Source: Meyerozyma guilliermondii
Taxonomy: Eukaryota
NCBI GenBank assembly: GCA_051546255.1
Contig: CP128816.1
Location: 1,302,001-1,366,000, forward strand
Direction of reading: 5' to 3'
DNA length: 64,000 nt
Each line of letters begins with the position of its first letter. Position 1 is the first letter of the stretch. Made by a program: the position numbers and the translations under genes. A model generated the notes under the pieces. That model searched no databases. It was given only the letters and a program-made list of their open reading frames with translations, and was not told the origin of the DNA. Shown in pieces: positions 9,722 to 57,508 of the stretch.

Positions 9722-10195
9722 TTACCCAGTGGCATATCTCTTTGCCTGCTCGCGCACCTTCTTCTCGTAAGTCACTCTATCCTTACTGTATGCCTTCCAC
9801 GCTGGCTCCTGAGCCGGGGAGTCGGGATTGGGAGAGTCCAAGAGTTCTTGAACTCCCATGACTATTTGCTTGAGAGTGATGGCAGGTCGCCAATCTTGCT
9901 CCTCGTTCAAGATCGAAAGACATACGGTTCCACTGGGATAAACGTTAGGATGATAGAAACCACTTGGAAATTTCACCTTGGGAGGTTTGGAAGGATATTC
10001 TTCGGGAAATGTGATGGTTATGGGAAAACTGGCATCAGCCCAAAGAGTTCCAGGTCGTCCAGGTATGCCAGCAGTCCACTGAGTTAAGTCAAGAGACCCA
10101 TCTGGGGCCTTATTAGGCTTTGCGTAGAATCCAAACGGATGGTCTTTTCTCCACTGCTTTCTCTCCTCCTGCAACCTAGTCTTACAAAGCGACAT
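9722..10195 (-). CDS. UBC9: SUMO-conjugating enzyme E2
   Basis: [17 protein letters not shown] and [15 protein letters not shown]. Confidence 0.97.
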
Positions 10196-19332: not shown

Positions 19333-21120
19333 TTAAAGCTTAGGTTTAGAGGCATCTACGCCGCCAGCAGTGGCCTCCATGTTTGTCGCCAACTTTCCTT
19401 CTTCGTTGGGACCATTGGGTTGCGTGCCGAAGAAGACCACGGTGACAGTCAAATCATCTCTGTACCGACGAGAGATTGGATTTGGAATCGAAATCAACAT
19501 TGATAGCTGCTCCTTGAAGCCTCCATTTGAAAGGGCGTTCCGAATAAGATGCGTGGATACGTTTTTGTCTTCAAGCAAATATCCGTCGGTGATGCTAGTA
19601 TTCTTTGCCTTTCTGTTTGGCCGTTTCGAGCTCTTGTCGTTCGTGACATCTGCCACTTCAGGAAGCTTACTCTCCGACAGACCAAAGTAGTTCCAAAACG
19701 TTTTTTGAGGTTTAATCATCTTCTCCTTTTCCATCCATTTGACTACAAGACCCACGATTTCTTCGTTGGTCAACATCTCGTACAAGCCATCACTGGCCAT
19801 CACCAAGAAGTCGTTATTCTCGGGGCTCATTTTCGTTGTGGTGATGACAGGTTCTGCCGTAACGTATGGTGGAGAGGTCAAGTTGTTTGGAAGTCGTTTG
19901 CCAAAGAATTGTTTGTAAATTCTCTCCTGGATACTGGCGGGAAGCTTGTAACGACAGTCACCAAACGCTCTGGTTGGTTCTAACGTTCCAAGAACACGGC
20001 CATTACGAACCACATTTGGTTCATCTGGATGTTCCGAGATTATTCGGGCAACTTCTGTTGGACTGGACCCCGTTTGATCTATACTCAACTGGCGTACTGT
20101 CCACTTGTTGTCTCTGAAAGACCCCAAGATGGCCCTGGAGTCACCAGTGACGGCCACTTTAAGCAACTTTGAGTTGGTATCGTAGAAGGAAAGAAGTGCA
20201 CATGAGCCCGATAATGCGGGCATCAACAACTCTGCTGCCTTTGCCTTGCTGTTGTCGGTCAACAAGCGCTCTATGCTCTTGTGGACGATTTCATGGTCAA
20301 GCTTCAAAAAGCCGTTTTTGATTGCTTGGTCAATGCTGGCACTATTGGGCACGTAACGCAAGCTGGGGTCCTCATTGGTAGGACGGAAGATAGTGCCGAG
20401 TTCGTGGATCACATAAGAAATGAGCTGGTCGCGCAACTTGCTGCTGGTAGTCCAACCGCCATGGCCATCAAACACTCCAAAGAACATCCAGTCCGTGGAT
20501 GCCTTGACATTGTTATCTTGAAGAATGGGCACCTGAACAATCTCCTCGGCGCGATCATCCTCGATGGGCAGATTCGAGGGCAACTGACAGATATCATATC
20601 TAGTAACACCCTTGCCGCGCTCGACATGATAGCTTTCTTCAAACTGACGCAACTTGTTACTTACCTGTTCTTCATTGAGCAAGAATACTCCCTCTTTATG
20701 CTGCTGGTGACCAATGCCATCTTTGTTCTTTATCGACGATGTAGATGTAGAAAAAAGCCGCTGGCCTCCGTCGTCGGCTAAATTCGATGAGCCGGTAACC
20801 CCAGACAACATTCTATTGCGGAAACTAGCCGGCGAAGGAACACCGGATCCAATTCCTGAACCGGACCCAGACGATGGAACCGAGTCGAGACTAAAGTAGT
20901 TTGATTGGTTGAAACTGATATAAGATCCCACAATTATAACTCCAGAAACAAGGGCAACCGCATGTTTACGTGCTGGTTTTGGAGAGGTTCCATTTCGGAT
21001 CAAACGCCCTGGAGCTCCATTCTTCAAGAGTCTGGAAGCATGGTTCATAAACGGACGCTTTCGCGTGATCAGACGTGCGTTGACGTACACTAGCCGTGGA
21101 CGAACCGCTAGCACATACAT
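19333..21120 (-). CDS. PTC5: Mitochondrial PP2C pyruvate dehydrogenase phosphatase
   Basis: QLPSNxPIEDD, FGVFDGHGGW, VAVTGDSRA, LEPTRAFGD, SDGLYE, RRYRDD, with a basic N-terminus. Confidence 0.9.
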   Translation of the reverse strand: MYVLAVRPRLVYVNARLITRKRPFMNHASRLLKNGAPGRLIRNGTSPKPARKHAVALVSGVIIVGSYISFNQSNYFSLDSVPSSGSGSGIGSGVPSPASFRNRMLSGVTGSSNLADDGGQRLFSTSTSSIKNKDGIGHQQHKEGVFLLNEEQVSNKLRQFEESYHVERGKGVTRYDICQLPSNLPIEDDRAEEIVQVPILQDNNVKASTDWMFFGVFDGHGGWTTSSKLRDQLISYVIHELGTIFRPTNEDPSLRYVPNSASIDQAIKNGFLKLDHEIVHKSIERLLTDNSKAKAAELLMPALSGSCALLSFYDTNSKLLKVAVTGDSRAILGSFRDNKWTVRQLSIDQTGSSPTEVARIISEHPDEPNVVRNGRVLGTLEPTRAFGDCRYKLPASIQERIYKQFFGKRLPNNLTSPPYVTAEPVITTTKMSPENNDFLVMASDGLYEMLTNEEIVGLVVKWMEKEKMIKPQKTFWNYFGLSESKLPEVADVTNDKSSKRPNRKAKNTSITDGYLLEDKNVSTHLIRNALSNGGFKEQLSMLISIPNPISRRYRDDLTVTVVFFGTQPNGPNEEGKLATNMEATAGGVDASKPKL

Positions 21121-21441: not shown

Positions 21442-21798
21442 TTAAGCAGCAATGGTGACTTCCACATCCACACCTGGTTCGATGGTGATTTGAGTGATTC
21501 TCTTGACAATAGAAGCAGGAGCTTGCAAGTCAATGACACGCTTGTGGATTCTCATCTCGTAGGTGTCCCAGGTCTTGGAACCCTCACCGTTTGGTGCCTT
21601 TCTGGTGGTGATCTTCAAAACCTTGGTTGGCATTCTAACGGGACCCTTCTTGACAATGTCACTTTGAGTAGCATTGGCAATGATGTTAGAAGAGACCTTC
21701 TCCAATTGCTTGACCTTGGTGGAGGTCAAGGTGATTCTGATCTTGTGGATCTCTTGTTCTTGTTCCTGAACCTTTTCCTTGTTGATTGGGGCAGACAT
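21442..21798 (-). CDS. RPS20: 40S ribosomal protein uS10
   Basis: [48 protein letters not shown] at 21798. Confidence 0.97.
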
Positions 21799-21819: not shown

Positions 21820-21876
21820 TGAAAAATTTCTCAAAAGTGCGACTCGTGGGGGCCGAGCCCTGTATGTGATCACGTG
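21820..21876 (-). promoter_or_regulatory. RRPE (TGAAAAATTT, 21820-21829) and Cbf1-type site (TCACGTG, 21870-21876) upstream of RPS20
   Basis: Exact motif matches. Cbf1 co-regulates ribosomal protein genes in the CTG clade. Confidence 0.6.
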
Positions 21877-22039
21877 CGTTACGAGGTTGGAGAAGAAGAT
21901 GATGGCTCATAGCTGGTGGACTATGTTATTGGTGCCGTGGCACTCTCTACTCACTCTCTACTGTGGCTACTGTGACTCTAATGGAGCTTAGGATTTTTCT
22001 TTCGAAAAATTCCGATTCTTGATTCTACACTATTTTCAT

Positions 22040-22138
22040 CTGGGTTAGTATTCAGAAATCAATTATTAGTTTTCTCCATCTTGAAGTTTTGAATGGTGTC
22101 AGAGAGATTCCCAATTGAAGATTCATCATTGTACATAC
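22040..22138 (-). other. Spliceosomal intron hosting the snoRNA
   Basis: 5' splice site GTATGT (22138-22133), perfect branch point TACTAAC (22050-22044), then CCAG (alternative acceptor AATAG ending at 22030). Confidence 0.75.
22050..22133 (-). ncRNA. Box C/D snoRNA, SNORD79(U79)-like, predicted to guide 2'-O-methylation of the LSU rRNA A in GAG[A]UUCCCA
   Basis: Minus strand: box C ATGATGA (22129-22123), guide TGGGAATCTC (22113-22104), D' CTGA (22102-22099), C'-like ATGGAGA, box D CTGA (22055-22052). The guide is complementary to the conserved LSU sequence GAGAUUCCCA. Confidence 0.85.
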
Positions 22139-22297
22139 TTGTTGTTACTGATCTTACTTGAACTTCCTAAAAATGTAAAACGCTGCAAATTGATGCTGAT
22201 GGTGTTGGTGTGAACACGACCTCTTCATGCAGTACGCCGACATTTTGGAACCGAAAAGTGTTGATTGTTAATTGACACATGAAATTACTCTATTCCA

Positions 22298-22579
22298 CTA
22301 TATAGGACCGTCATAGTACTCTCCCTCGCAGTCTTTTAAAAGTGGCTCAACTCGGGCTGCCCAATTTTTGTTTGCGTAATTTTCGTCACATCCGTCACTC
22401 TGACATTTCCGAAGTTTACGGTGAAAATGACTCGAACATAAGCAGTTTCTGATGCCCTCAATCTCCTGACATCCTTTGGCGAAAAGGACTGCTTCGTTGC
22501 ATTCTTTGTCGCACCAAAATGCTGGCCATGTATCAGCCGCGAAAGCCGTGGCTGCGAAAAGTAGAATGGAAAACTTCAT
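22298..22579 (-). CDS. Small secreted 8-Cys protein with CFEM-like cysteine spacing, no GPI tail
   Basis: Signal peptide MKFSILLFAATAFA, spacing C-x3-C-x9-C-x8-CxC-x10-C-x4-C-x19-C, TATA-like element ~40 nt upstream. Confidence 0.7.
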   Translation of the reverse strand: MKFSILLFAATAFAADTWPAFWCDKECNEAVLFAKGCQEIEGIRNCLCSSHFHRKLRKCQSDGCDENYANKNWAARVEPLLKDCEGEYYDGPI

Positions 22580-22794
22580 AATTAATGGCTGAACAAAGGT
22601 AGGATACGCTAGTGCTCTTATAAGTTATTAATGATCCGTGGTTAAAACTTTCCACCTTCTTGATTTTATTTTTCTTTTTTTGCATATTCACGAAATTAAG
22701 TAAACTCTCACTTATTGGCAACTATAAAATGAGATTATACTTACCAGCCCAATACTTTTATTCATTTTACTTCCCGTCGCATCGTCTATTTACA

Positions 22795-23649
22795 CTATTG
22801 TGACAACAGGGCGTATTCCTTCTCCAATCCCTTTAAACATTTCCACATCAACTCCACTTCACTATCATTGGCACTGCCACTAGTTGCCCATCTAATGCGC
22901 CCCTGGTGGTCCACCAAGTAGATGTAGCCGGAACAGGTATTATCACAGAGCATTTTTTGCTTGATGTCGTACGGAAACAATGACTCAGATACAATATAAT
23001 AAAGATTGTGTCTCTCATTTGGTAGTTGTGCTCTGAGATTACTTTCAGCAAGCTTAACAAACAACCCTTTTACAAAACTCTGAGGAATATTGATATCAAT
23101 GATCTGAGAATGAGGATATCTCTGCACCATCTCAGCATAATCCTGTTTCAAGTAGTTTTTTCCATCTCTATCGAAATACGAGTCTGCACATTTCTCACCA
23201 GAAACCGTGGAGTAGATCCGCACAAAACTGATTTTGTTTTGGAGAAGCTCGTAAAACAGTTGTGATTTCTTTGTTAATGTAGACGAGGAAAAGTCAGGAA
23301 AATATTTGGACTTGTCACTTCTGAAAAATGATATTGGTGGAGTGAAAATCTTACCTTTGGTATTGTTGAAAGATTTGGACTCGTAGAAAGGACTGTGTGC
23401 TATATCATGATCCAATCGTTTTTGCCGACGCTCTTTGGCCTCAGAACTAAACAATTCGTGTGTCAAGCCTCCAAAACCACTGGATTTATGGTTCAAGACT
23501 GTTCCTCTTTCCACGCCAAATGGCTTCGAAACTTTTATAGATTCCGTCAATGGTGGCTTGCTCGCCTCCTTTATGGTCTCTGCAAACCTAAGACTCTTCA
23601 AATGCGCCACAGAAGTGGAAAAAGTCCGATATCGATACACGGCCATCAT
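22795..23649 (-). CDS. ATP10: Mitochondrial F0 ATP synthase assembly factor
   Basis: KGKIFTPPISFFRSDKSKYFPDF and NTCSGYIYLVDHQGRIRWATSG. Confidence 0.92.
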   Translation of the reverse strand: MMAVYRYRTFSTSVAHLKSLRFAETIKEASKPPLTESIKVSKPFGVERGTVLNHKSSGFGGLTHELFSSEAKERRQKRLDHDIAHSPFYESKSFNNTKGKIFTPPISFFRSDKSKYFPDFSSSTLTKKSQLFYELLQNKISFVRIYSTVSGEKCADSYFDRDGKNYLKQDYAEMVQRYPHSQIIDINIPQSFVKGLFVKLAESNLRAQLPNERHNLYYIVSESLFPYDIKQKMLCDNTCSGYIYLVDHQGRIRWATSGSANDSEVELMWKCLKGLEKEYALLSQ

Positions 23650-44083: not shown

Positions 44084-46663
44084 TTAGTGCAAATGGTAGT
44101 CTTTGGTGAATGTATGCCACTCGTTGAGTTCGGTAAGATGTCGCATCGTGGGTCGCCCATGAGGACAGTTCCATGGTTTGTCCAAGTGGCTTAGATTATG
44201 AACAACTTTTTTCATTGTAGACGTAGAAAGTGGCTGCCCTATCATGATACTCGAACGACAAGATCTCAGAGCCAAAATCGTACGGATTTTGGAGCACTTG
44301 ACATGCTTATTATTGATTGAGCCTGCTTGATTGGTAAGGTGAATTAGCTCATGAAAATCTGATTCGTCAAAAACGGTGGTTCGCAGCACAGGTAAACTTG
44401 TTAGCTTCACGCGGTGCCCAGGAGCTTCATCTTCATCCACCTTTAGTCCAAATCCGTTGGTTTTGAAAACTTCAAGATTCGCAAGAACTGTCATTTCATC
44501 GAGCGCATTGAGCTCCATATTTCGTGGAACCACAAGCAGCTGCGAGTGGAACATAGTCGTGGAGTTGGCGAGCCTTTCAAAATTGTACTTTTCATCTGAA
44601 GCGTGCTGATCAACAATGAAAAGATTGTTTCCGCCATTCAATGTGACTAAAATAAACCCCAAATTGAACTGGCCAACAACTTGCATTTTCGTAAAATCTT
44701 TCTTGGAAATCAGGTACACCAATTTTTTTTCAGCTTCTTCTCTCGCCTCAATGTTGTCGATATGTATCTTCTTTCCAGCTTGCAGCGAGTTCTGGTGATC
44801 ATTGTTAAGAATGTTGGACCCAATACCGTTGATATCAAACGACAAAACTTTGCGCACATCATGAACATTATTCTTTTTCTTTGGTGACTGTTTCTTTGGG
44901 CTTTCCAAAAAGTTGCGATTTCCAATACTAATGGAAATATTATCGTCAAGCTCCTTTTCTGAATCTGAAGCAACAACTTCTGAAGTACCATCAGAATGTA
45001 CAAAATCAGATAGTTTGACGACTCGGACTTCCCTAGGATCCTCAGTAACTTGGTCAGCAGTAACTTGGTCAGCGACCTCTTGCTCAGCGGTAGCTTCTTG
45101 CTCAGCAGTAAAGTTGTCATCATCGTCCACAAAAAGCGTTGTAGGTTTGTCATCTGTAGCTCTCGTTATGTTTGGATGTGGACTATCGTGATCAGATATT
45201 TGTATCTCGTTCTCGTCAACATTATAAGTATCTTCAATCATTTCTTTTTCATTAATTGAATCCTCTTCATGACTCTCGTTATTCTCCATCTCGTCAACAT
45301 TATTAGTATTTTCAATCATTTCTCTGTCATTAACTGAATCTTCTTCATAGCTCTCGTCATGCTCCATCTGGTCTTCTTCCTGACTTTTGTGTTCTTCAAC
45401 ATTCTCACCAATATCATTCAATTCGTTTTCTGTATTCCTAGTATCATCAGCATCAAGCTCTTCGTCCTCAGCTAAATGGTATCTTTTCAAACTTGACGGT
45501 TGCTCATAGTCCTCTTTACGTTTTGCTCTGTCAATGCTTTGAGAAGGCAGTTCCCAGCTGTCACTATTTACAGGAATTTGGGTGTCTTCTGACTCGTAAA
45601 ACTTGGTGAGTTCGTGACGAAGAACATCGTTCAACACATCTTCATTGTGTATCATGACCGTGCGCTTATCTGGAGTCACGTTGATATCAAGAAAGTCTCC
45701 ATCAAGAACAATGTTAAGTACAACGACAGGAAATTGGACTGTGTTGAAAGATCTGTACACTTCATTGACAGTTTTGATGAACCGCCTGGACTCAACCGGG
45801 CGCTTATTGAGGTAGATGTACTGTCTGTCCCCAGCCGAACGACCCATGCCAAAGGAGCAATTGGAAATCATACCCTCAAATTTAATATCTAGTCTTTTCA
45901 AAACGGGCAAATCTCCAGCATTTAACTTGAATTTTACTTCTAGTTCCTTCGCTTCTAGAGAAACCAGTTCGAGTCCGTAGGTTCCATTGGACCCATATAC
46001 ATTGAGAAGACACAGCTTTATATCTGCTTTGGAACCACCTTGAGTTCCTAGCATCATTTGCTTCTTTTTCGCAGCTGTAATGTTGTATACGGTGAACCGT
46101 ATTTCCGGATGAATAAGGATGTAGCAGATCAAATTGTTAACTGCCTTTTGGAACTCCCTTTTGATATTCTTTTCCAAGGTTTTGCGTCGAACCGGCAACG
46201 CATTAAACAAAGAAGTTACAGTAACCACAGTGCCTCGAAGACCACCCACAGACTTTTCTGTTCCTGTCAAACGTCCCATATTGTCAAATGTCAATTGGGA
46301 TATACGAGGGTAATTTTGTTTCGTACAAGTGCTAATTGTTAGATTTGCAACAGAACAAATGGAGCTCATAGCTTCACCTCGAAATCCCAAAGTAGATACT
46401 TGTGCTAAACCTTCAAACAGAACCAACTTGGAAGTATGGTGGCGCAAGCACACATATTCAAAATCTTCCTCTTCAATTCCACTGCCATCGTCCTCAATTT
46501 TAATATAGTCTAGTCCACTATCGGAGAACGTGACATCGATTTTTGTGCTTCCTGAATCTATGGCATTTTCCACCAATTCTTTCACGACCGAGACGAGATC
46601 GACGATCACCTGGCCGGAGGTTATTCGCTGCACTTCGGTAGAATCAATGTTCTTTATTGGCAT
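44084..46663 (-). CDS. PMS1: MutL-alpha endonuclease subunit
   Basis: VKELVENAID, TLGFRGEA, endonuclease motif DQHASDEKYNFE, C-terminal PWNCPHGRPTMRHL. Confidence 0.96.
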   Translation of the reverse strand: MPIKNIDSTEVQRITSGQVIVDLVSVVKELVENAIDSGSTKIDVTFSDSGLDYIKIEDDGSGIEEEDFEYVCLRHHTSKLVLFEGLAQVSTLGFRGEAMSSICSVANLTISTCTKQNYPRISQLTFDNMGRLTGTEKSVGGLRGTVVTVTSLFNALPVRRKTLEKNIKREFQKAVNNLICYILIHPEIRFTVYNITAAKKKQMMLGTQGGSKADIKLCLLNVYGSNGTYGLELVSLEAKELEVKFKLNAGDLPVLKRLDIKFEGMISNCSFGMGRSAGDRQYIYLNKRPVESRRFIKTVNEVYRSFNTVQFPVVVLNIVLDGDFLDINVTPDKRTVMIHNEDVLNDVLRHELTKFYESEDTQIPVNSDSWELPSQSIDRAKRKEDYEQPSSLKRYHLAEDEELDADDTRNTENELNDIGENVEEHKSQEEDQMEHDESYEEDSVNDREMIENTNNVDEMENNESHEEDSINEKEMIEDTYNVDENEIQISDHDSPHPNITRATDDKPTTLFVDDDDNFTAEQEATAEQEVADQVTADQVTEDPREVRVVKLSDFVHSDGTSEVVASDSEKELDDNISISIGNRNFLESPKKQSPKKKNNVHDVRKVLSFDINGIGSNILNNDHQNSLQAGKKIHIDNIEAREEAEKKLVYLISKKDFTKMQVVGQFNLGFILVTLNGGNNLFIVDQHASDEKYNFERLANSTTMFHSQLLVVPRNMELNALDEMTVLANLEVFKTNGFGLKVDEDEAPGHRVKLTSLPVLRTTVFDESDFHELIHLTNQAGSINNKHVKCSKIRTILALRSCRSSIMIGQPLSTSTMKKVVHNLSHLDKPWNCPHGRPTMRHLTELNEWHTFTKDYHLH

Positions 46664-57125: not shown

Positions 57126-57508
57126 ACGTTCATGGCCAAAGATTTGTTTTCGAAGCTTACAAAAGGACTTTCGGGTCGTCAGTGCTTTGGGGAAAGTCTC
57201 CTGCCTAAACGCGGAAACGCAATGGTCCCATCAGACCATTTGAACCATTCAGAATTTTAGAGGCGGACAACCCTTTACAACATTTTGGCAAATACTAACG
57301 ATTTCGTTGTGTCTATTTTTAAAATAGCTCTGGTATTGGCCATTTTGTATGGTATTGGACTCTGTTGTTTGGTAAAGCTCTTTAATTTTGGCTGGTTCAC
57401 ATCCCATTTATGGTGTACATTCGGCAATGGGACGGTGAATCCTAAACGATAGTTATAACAAATGATCTACGATCAACCCAATGGAGCTCACTCTTGGACC
57501 ATGAACGT
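57126..57508 (+). ncRNA. NME1: RNase MRP RNA
   Basis: P1 helix ACGTTCATGG (57126) / CCATGAACGT (57508), P3 CGAAGCTTACAAAA, CR-I GAAAGTCTCC (57192-57201), P8 GCGGAAACGC, CR-IV ATAGTTA, CR-V AACCCAATGGAGCTCAC. TATATATAA at 57092 and an RRPE-like element at 57101. Confidence 0.93.

Follow-up and report, generated by a model that had tools for sequence, protein, structure and literature searches.

A predicted intron-encoded box C/D snoRNA upstream of RPS20 in Meyerozyma guilliermondii, a candidate guide for the U79-site adenosine of LSU rRNA

Introduction

The same adenosine of the large-subunit (LSU) ribosomal RNA (rRNA) is the target of human SNORD79/U79, of plant snoR44/J54/Z268 and of fly Me28S-Am2634, and it is also the nucleotide that appears to be addressed by the box C/D small nucleolar RNA (snoRNA) described here, which was found in 64,000 nucleotides (nt) of DNA from the yeast Meyerozyma guilliermondii (GenBank assembly GCA_051546255.1, contig CP128816.1, positions 1,302,001 to 1,366,000 of the forward strand). 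This whole stretch is called the window below, and the snoRNA lies on its minus strand, between consensus splice signals, upstream of the gene RPS20. In the site table of PMC3511168, Am2316, guided by AtsnoR44, is equated with Am3809, guided by U79, and the yeast entry is blank. Plant snoR44 carries its guide before box D, together with a U74-type guide, whereas in the window snoRNA the guide is placed before box D' and no second target is evident. S. cerevisiae snR64 and human U74 (clan CL00069) belong to the same clan as U79 and snoR44, but they use another guide for another nucleotide, a C located 11 nt downstream, and the window snoRNA has no complement to the snR64 site.

Among fungi, the closest described guide is CD14 of N. 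crassa which, like the window snoRNA, is intron-encoded, short (75 nt) and provided with a single D' guide; its match of 10/0 is to 26S-Am2288, with the snR64/U74 cytidine following 11 nt further on, according to the table of PMC2780460. The same table gives U79 homologues for CD14 in Arabidopsis and human, and none in S. pombe or S. cerevisiae (PMC2780460). As far as the table description of CD14 allows the comparison, the window snoRNA differs in coming from a budding yeast, in its location beside RPS20 and in its far tighter intron.

Intronic snoRNAs of the Candida clade are also alike in their organisation, with one snoRNA per short intron and with GTATGT and TACTAAC as consensus signals; their hosts, in the cases described in PMC5033589, are non-protein-coding transcripts or introns of untranslated regions (UTRs), as for snR79, snR58 and LSU-C2809. 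In contrast to those introns, that of the window has only 3 nt between the donor and box C and 1 nt between box D and the branch-point box. Our literature search returned no budding-yeast guide for the U79 site and no Candida RiboMeth-seq map, with the fungal snoRNAome supplements (CD_14) and Mitrovich et al. 2010 outside its scope.

The arrangement itself is already known, and the snoRNA is a real and fairly ordinary new example, the one distinctive trait of which is that its splice signals almost abut the boxes. On sequence evidence, it is highly probable that the locus encodes a functional box C/D snoRNA of about 85 nt, carried in the intron of a short RNA polymerase II (Pol II) transcript and guiding the methylation of the U79-site adenosine.

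Anatomy of the snoRNA and its intron

Read on the minus strand from 22138 to 22040, the sequence consists of GTATGT-ACA-ATGATGA, 20 nt ending in TGGGAATCTCT, CTGA, 19 nt, ATGGAGA, 17 nt, and finally CTGA-A-TACTAAC-CCAG. The features are the following:

22040-22138, minus strand: predicted intron, 99 nt with the first AG (22041-40) and 109 nt with the AG at 22031-30
22138-22133, minus strand: splice donor GTATGT
22048-22134, minus strand: predicted mature box C/D snoRNA, about 85 nt, with inferred ends
22132-22130, minus strand: ACA, spacer between donor and box C
22129-22123, minus strand: box C, ATGATGA, of which TGATGA is invariant in 5 aligned sequences (4 lineages)
22113-22104 and 22103, minus strand: D' guide TGGGAATCTC and T22103, invariant in all lineages
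22102-22099, minus strand: box D', CTGA, invariant
22079-22073, minus strand: degenerate C'-like box ATGGAGA, with ATGGAGAAAAC invariant
22064-22059, minus strand: invariant AATTGA, 3 nt before box D
22055-22052, minus strand: box D, CTGA, invariant, followed by A22051
22050-22044, minus strand: branch-point box TACTAAC, with the branch A at 22045
22041-22040, minus strand: first 3' AG
22031-30, 22026-25 and 22019-18, minus strand: further AGs

The locus has the features of the box C/D class, with RUGAUGA close to its 5' end, CUGA close to its 3' end and a short terminal stem, and a single snoRNA is bracketed in the window by GTATGT, TACTAAC and a 3' AG. Every motif that the preliminary description of this DNA had placed on the minus strand was recovered where it had been reported, and its view of an intron nearly filled by the snoRNA holds, with 3 nt from the donor hexamer to box C and 1 nt from box D to the branch-point box. 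The ends of the mature RNA were placed by a common rule, according to which 4-5 nt precede box C and 2-5 nt follow box D. Counted from the branch A (22045), the four AGs are reached after 5, 15, 20 and 27 nt.

The terminal stem of the window is weak, with 3-4 base pairs (bp), either GUA/UAC or GUAU/AUAC. The whole intron RNA folds no better than its shuffles (z +1.31), which is usual for the box C/D class. Inside the snoRNA, the invariant TCAATT (22118-22113) is the perfect complement of the invariant AATTGA (22064-22059) in all four lineages, and the two may form an internal helix; given that both sides are invariant, covariation cannot support it.

A chance assembly of short motifs devoid of function was considered, taking into account that each of the boxes is short and that no Rfam model passes its threshold at the locus. 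The composite pattern GTATGT-(0-10)-RTGATGA-(55-110)-CTGA-(0-10)-TACTAAC is found a single time in the window and in none of 300 first-order Markov shuffles, which speaks against chance. The 14-mer formed by the guide and box D' has one occurrence against 0.06 expected, with at least one match in 6 of 100 shuffles. Two other places of the window, a GTATGT...TACTAAC pair at 9925 (minus strand) and a C/D-like pattern at 45123 (minus strand), appear inside protein-coding sequence and were judged to be fortuitous; the gene at 9925 (minus strand) reads by eye like a UBC9-type protein. The decisive evidence is comparative, with syntenic matches of 78-94 bits in three other lineages, invariant boxes, varied spacers and compensating stems. 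By this conservation the chance reading, to which we give a negligible probability, is effectively refuted.

Conservation in related yeasts

Metagenome contigs were scanned with the RPS20 protein, and 80 loci were obtained; for 13 of these, the best segment shows 66-90% identity. The exact guide and D' 14-mer is present in five of the 80 (L001, L003, L004, L005 and L006), always on the RPS20 strand and 474-583 nt upstream of the ATG. L003, L005 and L006 are nearly identical and were counted as one lineage. ATP10 is found upstream in the five snoRNA-bearing loci, as well as in L007 and L008, and a PP2C gene follows RPS20 in L001, L002, L005 and L008; the order ATP10-snoRNA-RPS20(-PP2C) is kept.

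In the aligned copies, TGATGA, TTCAATTGGGAATCTCTCTGAC, ATGGAGAAAAC, TAATTGA and TCTGA are invariant, and the intervening spacers vary in both length and sequence. In five aligned sequences from four lineages, no change is seen in the 17-nt guide region or in boxes C, D', C' and D. The terminal stems differ yet stay complementary, being GUA/UAC in the window, AGAC/GUCU in L001 and UUCAA/UUGAA in L004; in L003/5/6 the stem is an external CUGUUUC/GAAACAG, likewise complementary. The RNAalifold consensus fold contains no compensatory pairs and is uninformative.

A sequence-only covariance model (R1), built from the five sequences and run over 81 sources, gave 78-94 bits on six copies (the window and the five loci), the window match being of 80.7 bits at 22047-22137. 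The only further syntenic match, of 26 bits, was obtained in L007. Six weaker matches were left, and they were treated as chance matches since the best five of them (E 0.003-0.03) fall inside RPS20 coding matches.

The syntenic place of L007 (2516-2612, plus strand) is occupied by a diverged version of the snoRNA, in which ATAATGA replaces box C and the guide region has two A-to-G changes; neither a consensus GTATGT nor a consensus TACTAAC accompanies it. This copy may be decaying or re-wired.

Splice signals are conserved along with the snoRNA, a single GTATGT preceding it and a single TACTAAC following it in all five related loci. This agrees with the earlier proposal of a box C/D snoRNA located between splice signals. 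Conservation, the lack of which in related CTG yeasts the preliminary description had named as a refutation, extends in boxes and guide across four lineages in synteny. Judged by its sequence in these lineages, the element is a genuine, conserved box C/D snoRNA.

Guide and rRNA target

A eukaryotic LSU sequence was sought by scanning viral_contigs with a 17-nt motif, which gave six loci. Only one of them, L083, is an rRNA, namely part of a eukaryotic LSU, with a score of 681.7 bits against RF02543. The other five (L081, L082 and L084-L086) were rejected as LSU rRNA as they had no Rfam match; L081 and L086 look protein-coding, and four of the matches were on the plus strand.

The Rfam LSU_rRNA_eukarya consensus reads AACgAGAUUCCcACUGUCCC from model position 2326 (2326-2345). 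With GAGAUUCCCA, a target taken from this eukaryotic consensus and not from the rRNA of the species, the guide TGGGAATCTC (22113-22104) makes Watson-Crick pairs at all 10 positions; the next nucleotide, T22103, faces a C and is unpaired. T22107, the fifth nucleotide before box D', stands opposite the A at LSU model position 2332. In ACUGUCCC, the CCC begins 11 nt downstream of this A.

The same spacing of 11 nt is found in the published site tables, between Am2288 (CD14) and Cm2299 (CD36) in N. crassa (PMC2780460), between Am2316 and Cm2327, both guided by snoR44, in Arabidopsis (PMC3511168), and between Am3809 (U79) and Cm3820 (U74) in human (PMC3511168). Taking into account that the distance from the target A to the C matches these U79/U74 tables, the A can be assigned to the U79 site. 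Thus, the guide should select the adenosine corresponding to human 28S-A3809, Arabidopsis 25S-A2316 and N. crassa 26S-A2288. In S. cerevisiae numbering, we take this site to be about A2326, if the snR64 site is C2337. The tables of PMC2780460 and PMC3511168 enter no S. cerevisiae guide for the U79-site A. The ten pairs, the fifth-nucleotide rule and these tables agree with the initial view that the guide addresses an LSU adenosine for which no S. cerevisiae guide is known.

The possibility of another guide, before box D, was discarded. The invariant stretch there is limited to 7 nt (TAATTGA), and a second rRNA guide is unlikely because the three nucleotides beside box D vary.

Relation to known guide families

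The search against Rfam, proposed as a check in the preliminary description, gave no family reaching its gathering score at the locus. At E<=10, the best match was snoR44_J54 (RF00357), with 21.4 bits against a gathering score of 48, accompanied by Me28S-Am2634 (RF00537), with 20.1 bits against 50; SNORD79 (RF00152) was not among the matches at this limit, where one lower clan-mate match was masked by the clan filter. The snoR44_J54 consensus has the guide core GGGAAUCUCUCUGA in common with the window snoRNA, and Me28S-Am2634 has GGAAUCUC, both alignments resting on this core. Since the Rfam matches are below threshold, the relation to U79 is one of function (guide and site) and not a demonstrated family membership. 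Accordingly, the likeness to SNORD79 first ascribed to the snoRNA is one of guide and target site.

The absence of a Rfam family at gathering score, the low score of the best match and the missing RF00152 match all weigh against a functional U79-site guide, and several other observations must be added to them. The guide duplex has only 10 bp, and the pairing was checked on the Rfam consensus only. No copy of the snoRNA was found upstream of RPS20 in L002 and L013 (where 582 and 816 nt of upstream sequence could be searched), in L008 or in L009-L011; given this absence and the divergence in L007, the snoRNA is dispensable in some relatives. Besides, the first AG lies only 5 nt past the branch A, and crowding of boxes and splice signals is said, in a second-hand citation, to disturb splicing or snoRNP (small nucleolar ribonucleoprotein) assembly elsewhere.

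The locus and the host transcript

The genes that surround the snoRNA are all on its strand, in the order ATP10, ORF93 (an open reading frame, ORF, of 93 codons), snoRNA intron, RPS20 and a PP2C-like protein of 595 amino acids (aa):

22795-23649, minus strand: ATP10 (PF05176)
22298-22579, minus strand: ORF93, gene for a 93-aa secreted-type protein, with a signal peptide and 8 invariant Cys
22139-22297, minus strand: putative exon 1 or ORF93 3' UTR, 159 nt, with ORFs of 37 and 29 codons only
21940-22039, minus strand: putative exon 2, with four GTAG motifs, ending before the RPS20 promoter
21442-21798, minus strand: RPS20, the downstream neighbour (Ribosomal_S10, PF00338)
19333-21120, minus strand: 595-aa protein, PP2C-like by eye

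ORF93 belongs to no Pfam family, according to a Pfam search. It is 64-67% identical to three other protein clusters, among which the signal peptides vary; ORF93 and these homologues share eight invariant cysteines, an invariant SDGCDENYANKNW block and a conserved end ...YDG(P/V)I, all four terminating in ...DG-(P/V)-I. By this sequence conservation, ORF93 is a real, conserved gene.

Two hosts can be proposed for the intron, a short non-coding unit separate from its neighbours and the ORF93 3' UTR. The second reading, in which the ORF93 messenger RNA (gene at 22579-22298) carries the same snoRNA and no separate promoter is required, is a possibility to be taken seriously, although we hold it to be doubtful. 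It is favoured by the short gap of 159 nt from the ORF93 stop to the donor, by the lack of promoter motifs and by a precedent in Candida. No Tbf1 (TTAGGG/CCCTAA) or CACGTG site is present in 22139-22900, ORF93 itself is real and conserved, and in Candida snR58 and LSU-C2809 are described in the 3'-UTR introns of one gene (PMC5033589). Upstream of the donor, no conserved promoter sequence was detected among the window, L001 and L004. The TATATA at 22304-22299, which the preliminary description had taken for the promoter, does exist, and its role as a promoter is unproven, as it overlaps the last codons and the stop of ORF93 (CCT ATA TAG), that is, the conserved Pro-Ile-stop end of the protein; so the supposed TATA box is also in favour of an ORF93 host. 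The TATATA can nevertheless be turned against that host, as this hexamer is the best yeast poly(A) efficiency element and would end the ORF93 messenger before the intron.

The comparison with related loci points to a separate unit. ORF93 is beside the snoRNA in none of the five related carriers, and it has no match in any of the 80 RPS20 loci; therefore, the ancestral host would have lacked ORF93. Moreover, L003/5/6 have a single CCCTAA and a TATA-like box upstream of the snoRNA, an element that fits the snoRNA promoters of C. albicans and D. hansenii, which are described with one Tbf1 site (PMC4138321). A separate host unit is favoured by the absence of ORF93 from the relatives and by this CCCTAA.

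The putative exons of such a unit have little coding capacity, the longest ORFs in the spliced flanks being of 37 and 29 codons. The 29-codon ORF noted earlier in exon 1 is there; it is not the only one, since a 37-codon ORF begins 17 nt past the ORF93 stop and before the donor. On the 3' side of the intron, GTAG motifs occur at 22028, 21970, 21961 and 21950 on the minus strand, and a density of at least 4 GTAG per 100 nt is reached in only 0.18% of the 100-nt windows across the 64 kb. With its likeness to terminator motifs of Nrd1 type, this cluster may mark the end of the host transcript, in keeping with a short host dedicated to the snoRNA.

It could also be thought that the intron forms part of a long RPS20 5' UTR, as in other ribosomal-protein genes with snoRNA introns. 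The snoRNA is on the RPS20 strand, 242 nt upstream of the ATG, and both are linked in five lineages, in agreement with this idea. However, promoter elements of ribosomal-protein type lie downstream of the intron; in the window, a CACGTG (21876) and a run of AAATTTT separate the intron from the RPS20 ATG. In the relatives, the elements on the RPS20 side are a palindromic TTAGGG...CCCTAA of Tbf1 type in L003/5/6 (L003:1460-1480 and L005:2815-2835), a near-palindrome TTAGGG...CCCTG in L004 (2826-2842), and CACGTG sites with TTAGGG in L001 (2890-2925). Such elements match those of the ribosomal-protein promoters of C. albicans and D. hansenii, as described in PMC4138321. Given that they are located between the intron and the ATG, the intron would not be part of the RPS20 5' UTR. 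Besides, the distance to the ATG ranges between 314 and 583 nt, its sequence is not conserved, and the GTAG cluster follows the intron. We therefore regard an RPS20 5'-UTR host as very improbable.

As for the RPS20 promoter of the window itself, its upstream region contains only the CACGTG at 21876 and a degenerate GGGCTCGGCCC.

Elsewhere in the window, an RNase MRP RNA gene was found at 57129-57504 (plus strand), with a full-length match of 97.8 bits to Rfam RF00030. A tRNA scan aimed at the CAG-anticodon tRNA, which bears on the CTG-clade question, returned no tRNAs.

Splicing and compaction of the intron

In the five related loci, the spacers are far longer than in the window, with 14-44 nt from the donor to box C and 21-73 nt from box D to the branch-point box, against 3 and 1 nt. 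Thus, the intronic arrangement appears to be conserved, and its extreme compaction would be specific to the lineage of the window.

This compaction leaves room for a reading in which the splice signals are used little or never: the main part of GUAUGUA and UACUAAC would be to form the terminal stem, and exonucleases, or endonuclease cuts, would free the snoRNA from a transcript that is not spliced. GUA 22134-22132 (GUAU 22138-22135) pairs with UAC 22050-22048 (AUAC 22051-22048) at both sides of the boxes, and the Rfam Me28S-Am2634 alignment likewise pairs GUA with UAC; since the donor and branch sequences pair next to the boxes, a folded snoRNP would hide both splice signals. The distance of 5 nt between the branch A and the first AG also goes in this direction, as does the shift of snoRNAs from an intronic position in Candida to an exonic one in Saccharomyces, which Donovan et al. 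mention citing Mitrovich et al. 2010 (PMC5033589). Nevertheless, perfect GTATGT and TACTAAC are retained in all four lineages, in spite of separate stems and of spacers of 14-73 nt, which argues for selection on splicing itself. Furthermore, in the L007 copy the absence of consensus splice signals is accompanied by a deviating box C. Disuse of the splice signals is therefore an unlikely explanation.

If, on the contrary, the intron is spliced, the terminal stem of the window is made of the donor and branch-point sequences, and so kink-turn folding and recognition by the spliceosome should exclude each other. We put forward, only tentatively and with a good deal of doubt, that the intron has shrunk until GUAUGUA/UACUAAC form the terminal stem of the snoRNA, in such a way that snoRNP assembly must follow splicing and takes place perhaps on the lariat, whose 2'-5' bond would hold both halves of the stem together during assembly. 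If this were true, the intron would be a natural minimal intron identical to the snoRNA precursor, and it could be used to test the limit of the distance between a C/D snoRNP and the branch point. In any case, the tight packing of splice signals on boxes C and D offers a natural test case for splicing against snoRNP assembly.

Proposed course of events and biological meaning

In the favoured explanation, of which transcription, splicing, trimming, methylation and host identity are the inferred parts, Pol II would transcribe a short unit located between ATP10/ORF93 and the RPS20 promoter. The intron, of 99-109 nt, would then be spliced out and its lariat debranched, and the product would be trimmed by about 4 nt at its 5' end and by up to about 10 nt at its 3' end. 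Once in the snoRNP, the D' guide would pair with LSU GAGAUUCCCA, and fibrillarin/Nop1 would 2'-O-methylate the A at model position 2332.

With this snoRNA, an unannotated non-coding gene upstream of RPS20 comes to light, one that annotation pipelines based on Rfam would miss. Through it, the ancient U79/snoR44/CD14 guide family would gain a representative in a budding yeast, and it predicts a ribose methylation in domain IV of the LSU rRNA that S. cerevisiae lacks. Moreover, the distribution of this guide among the RPS20 loci is patchy, with intact copies in four lineages, a diverged one in another and absence from at least three, and it may thus serve as a case study of the turnover of rRNA modifications.

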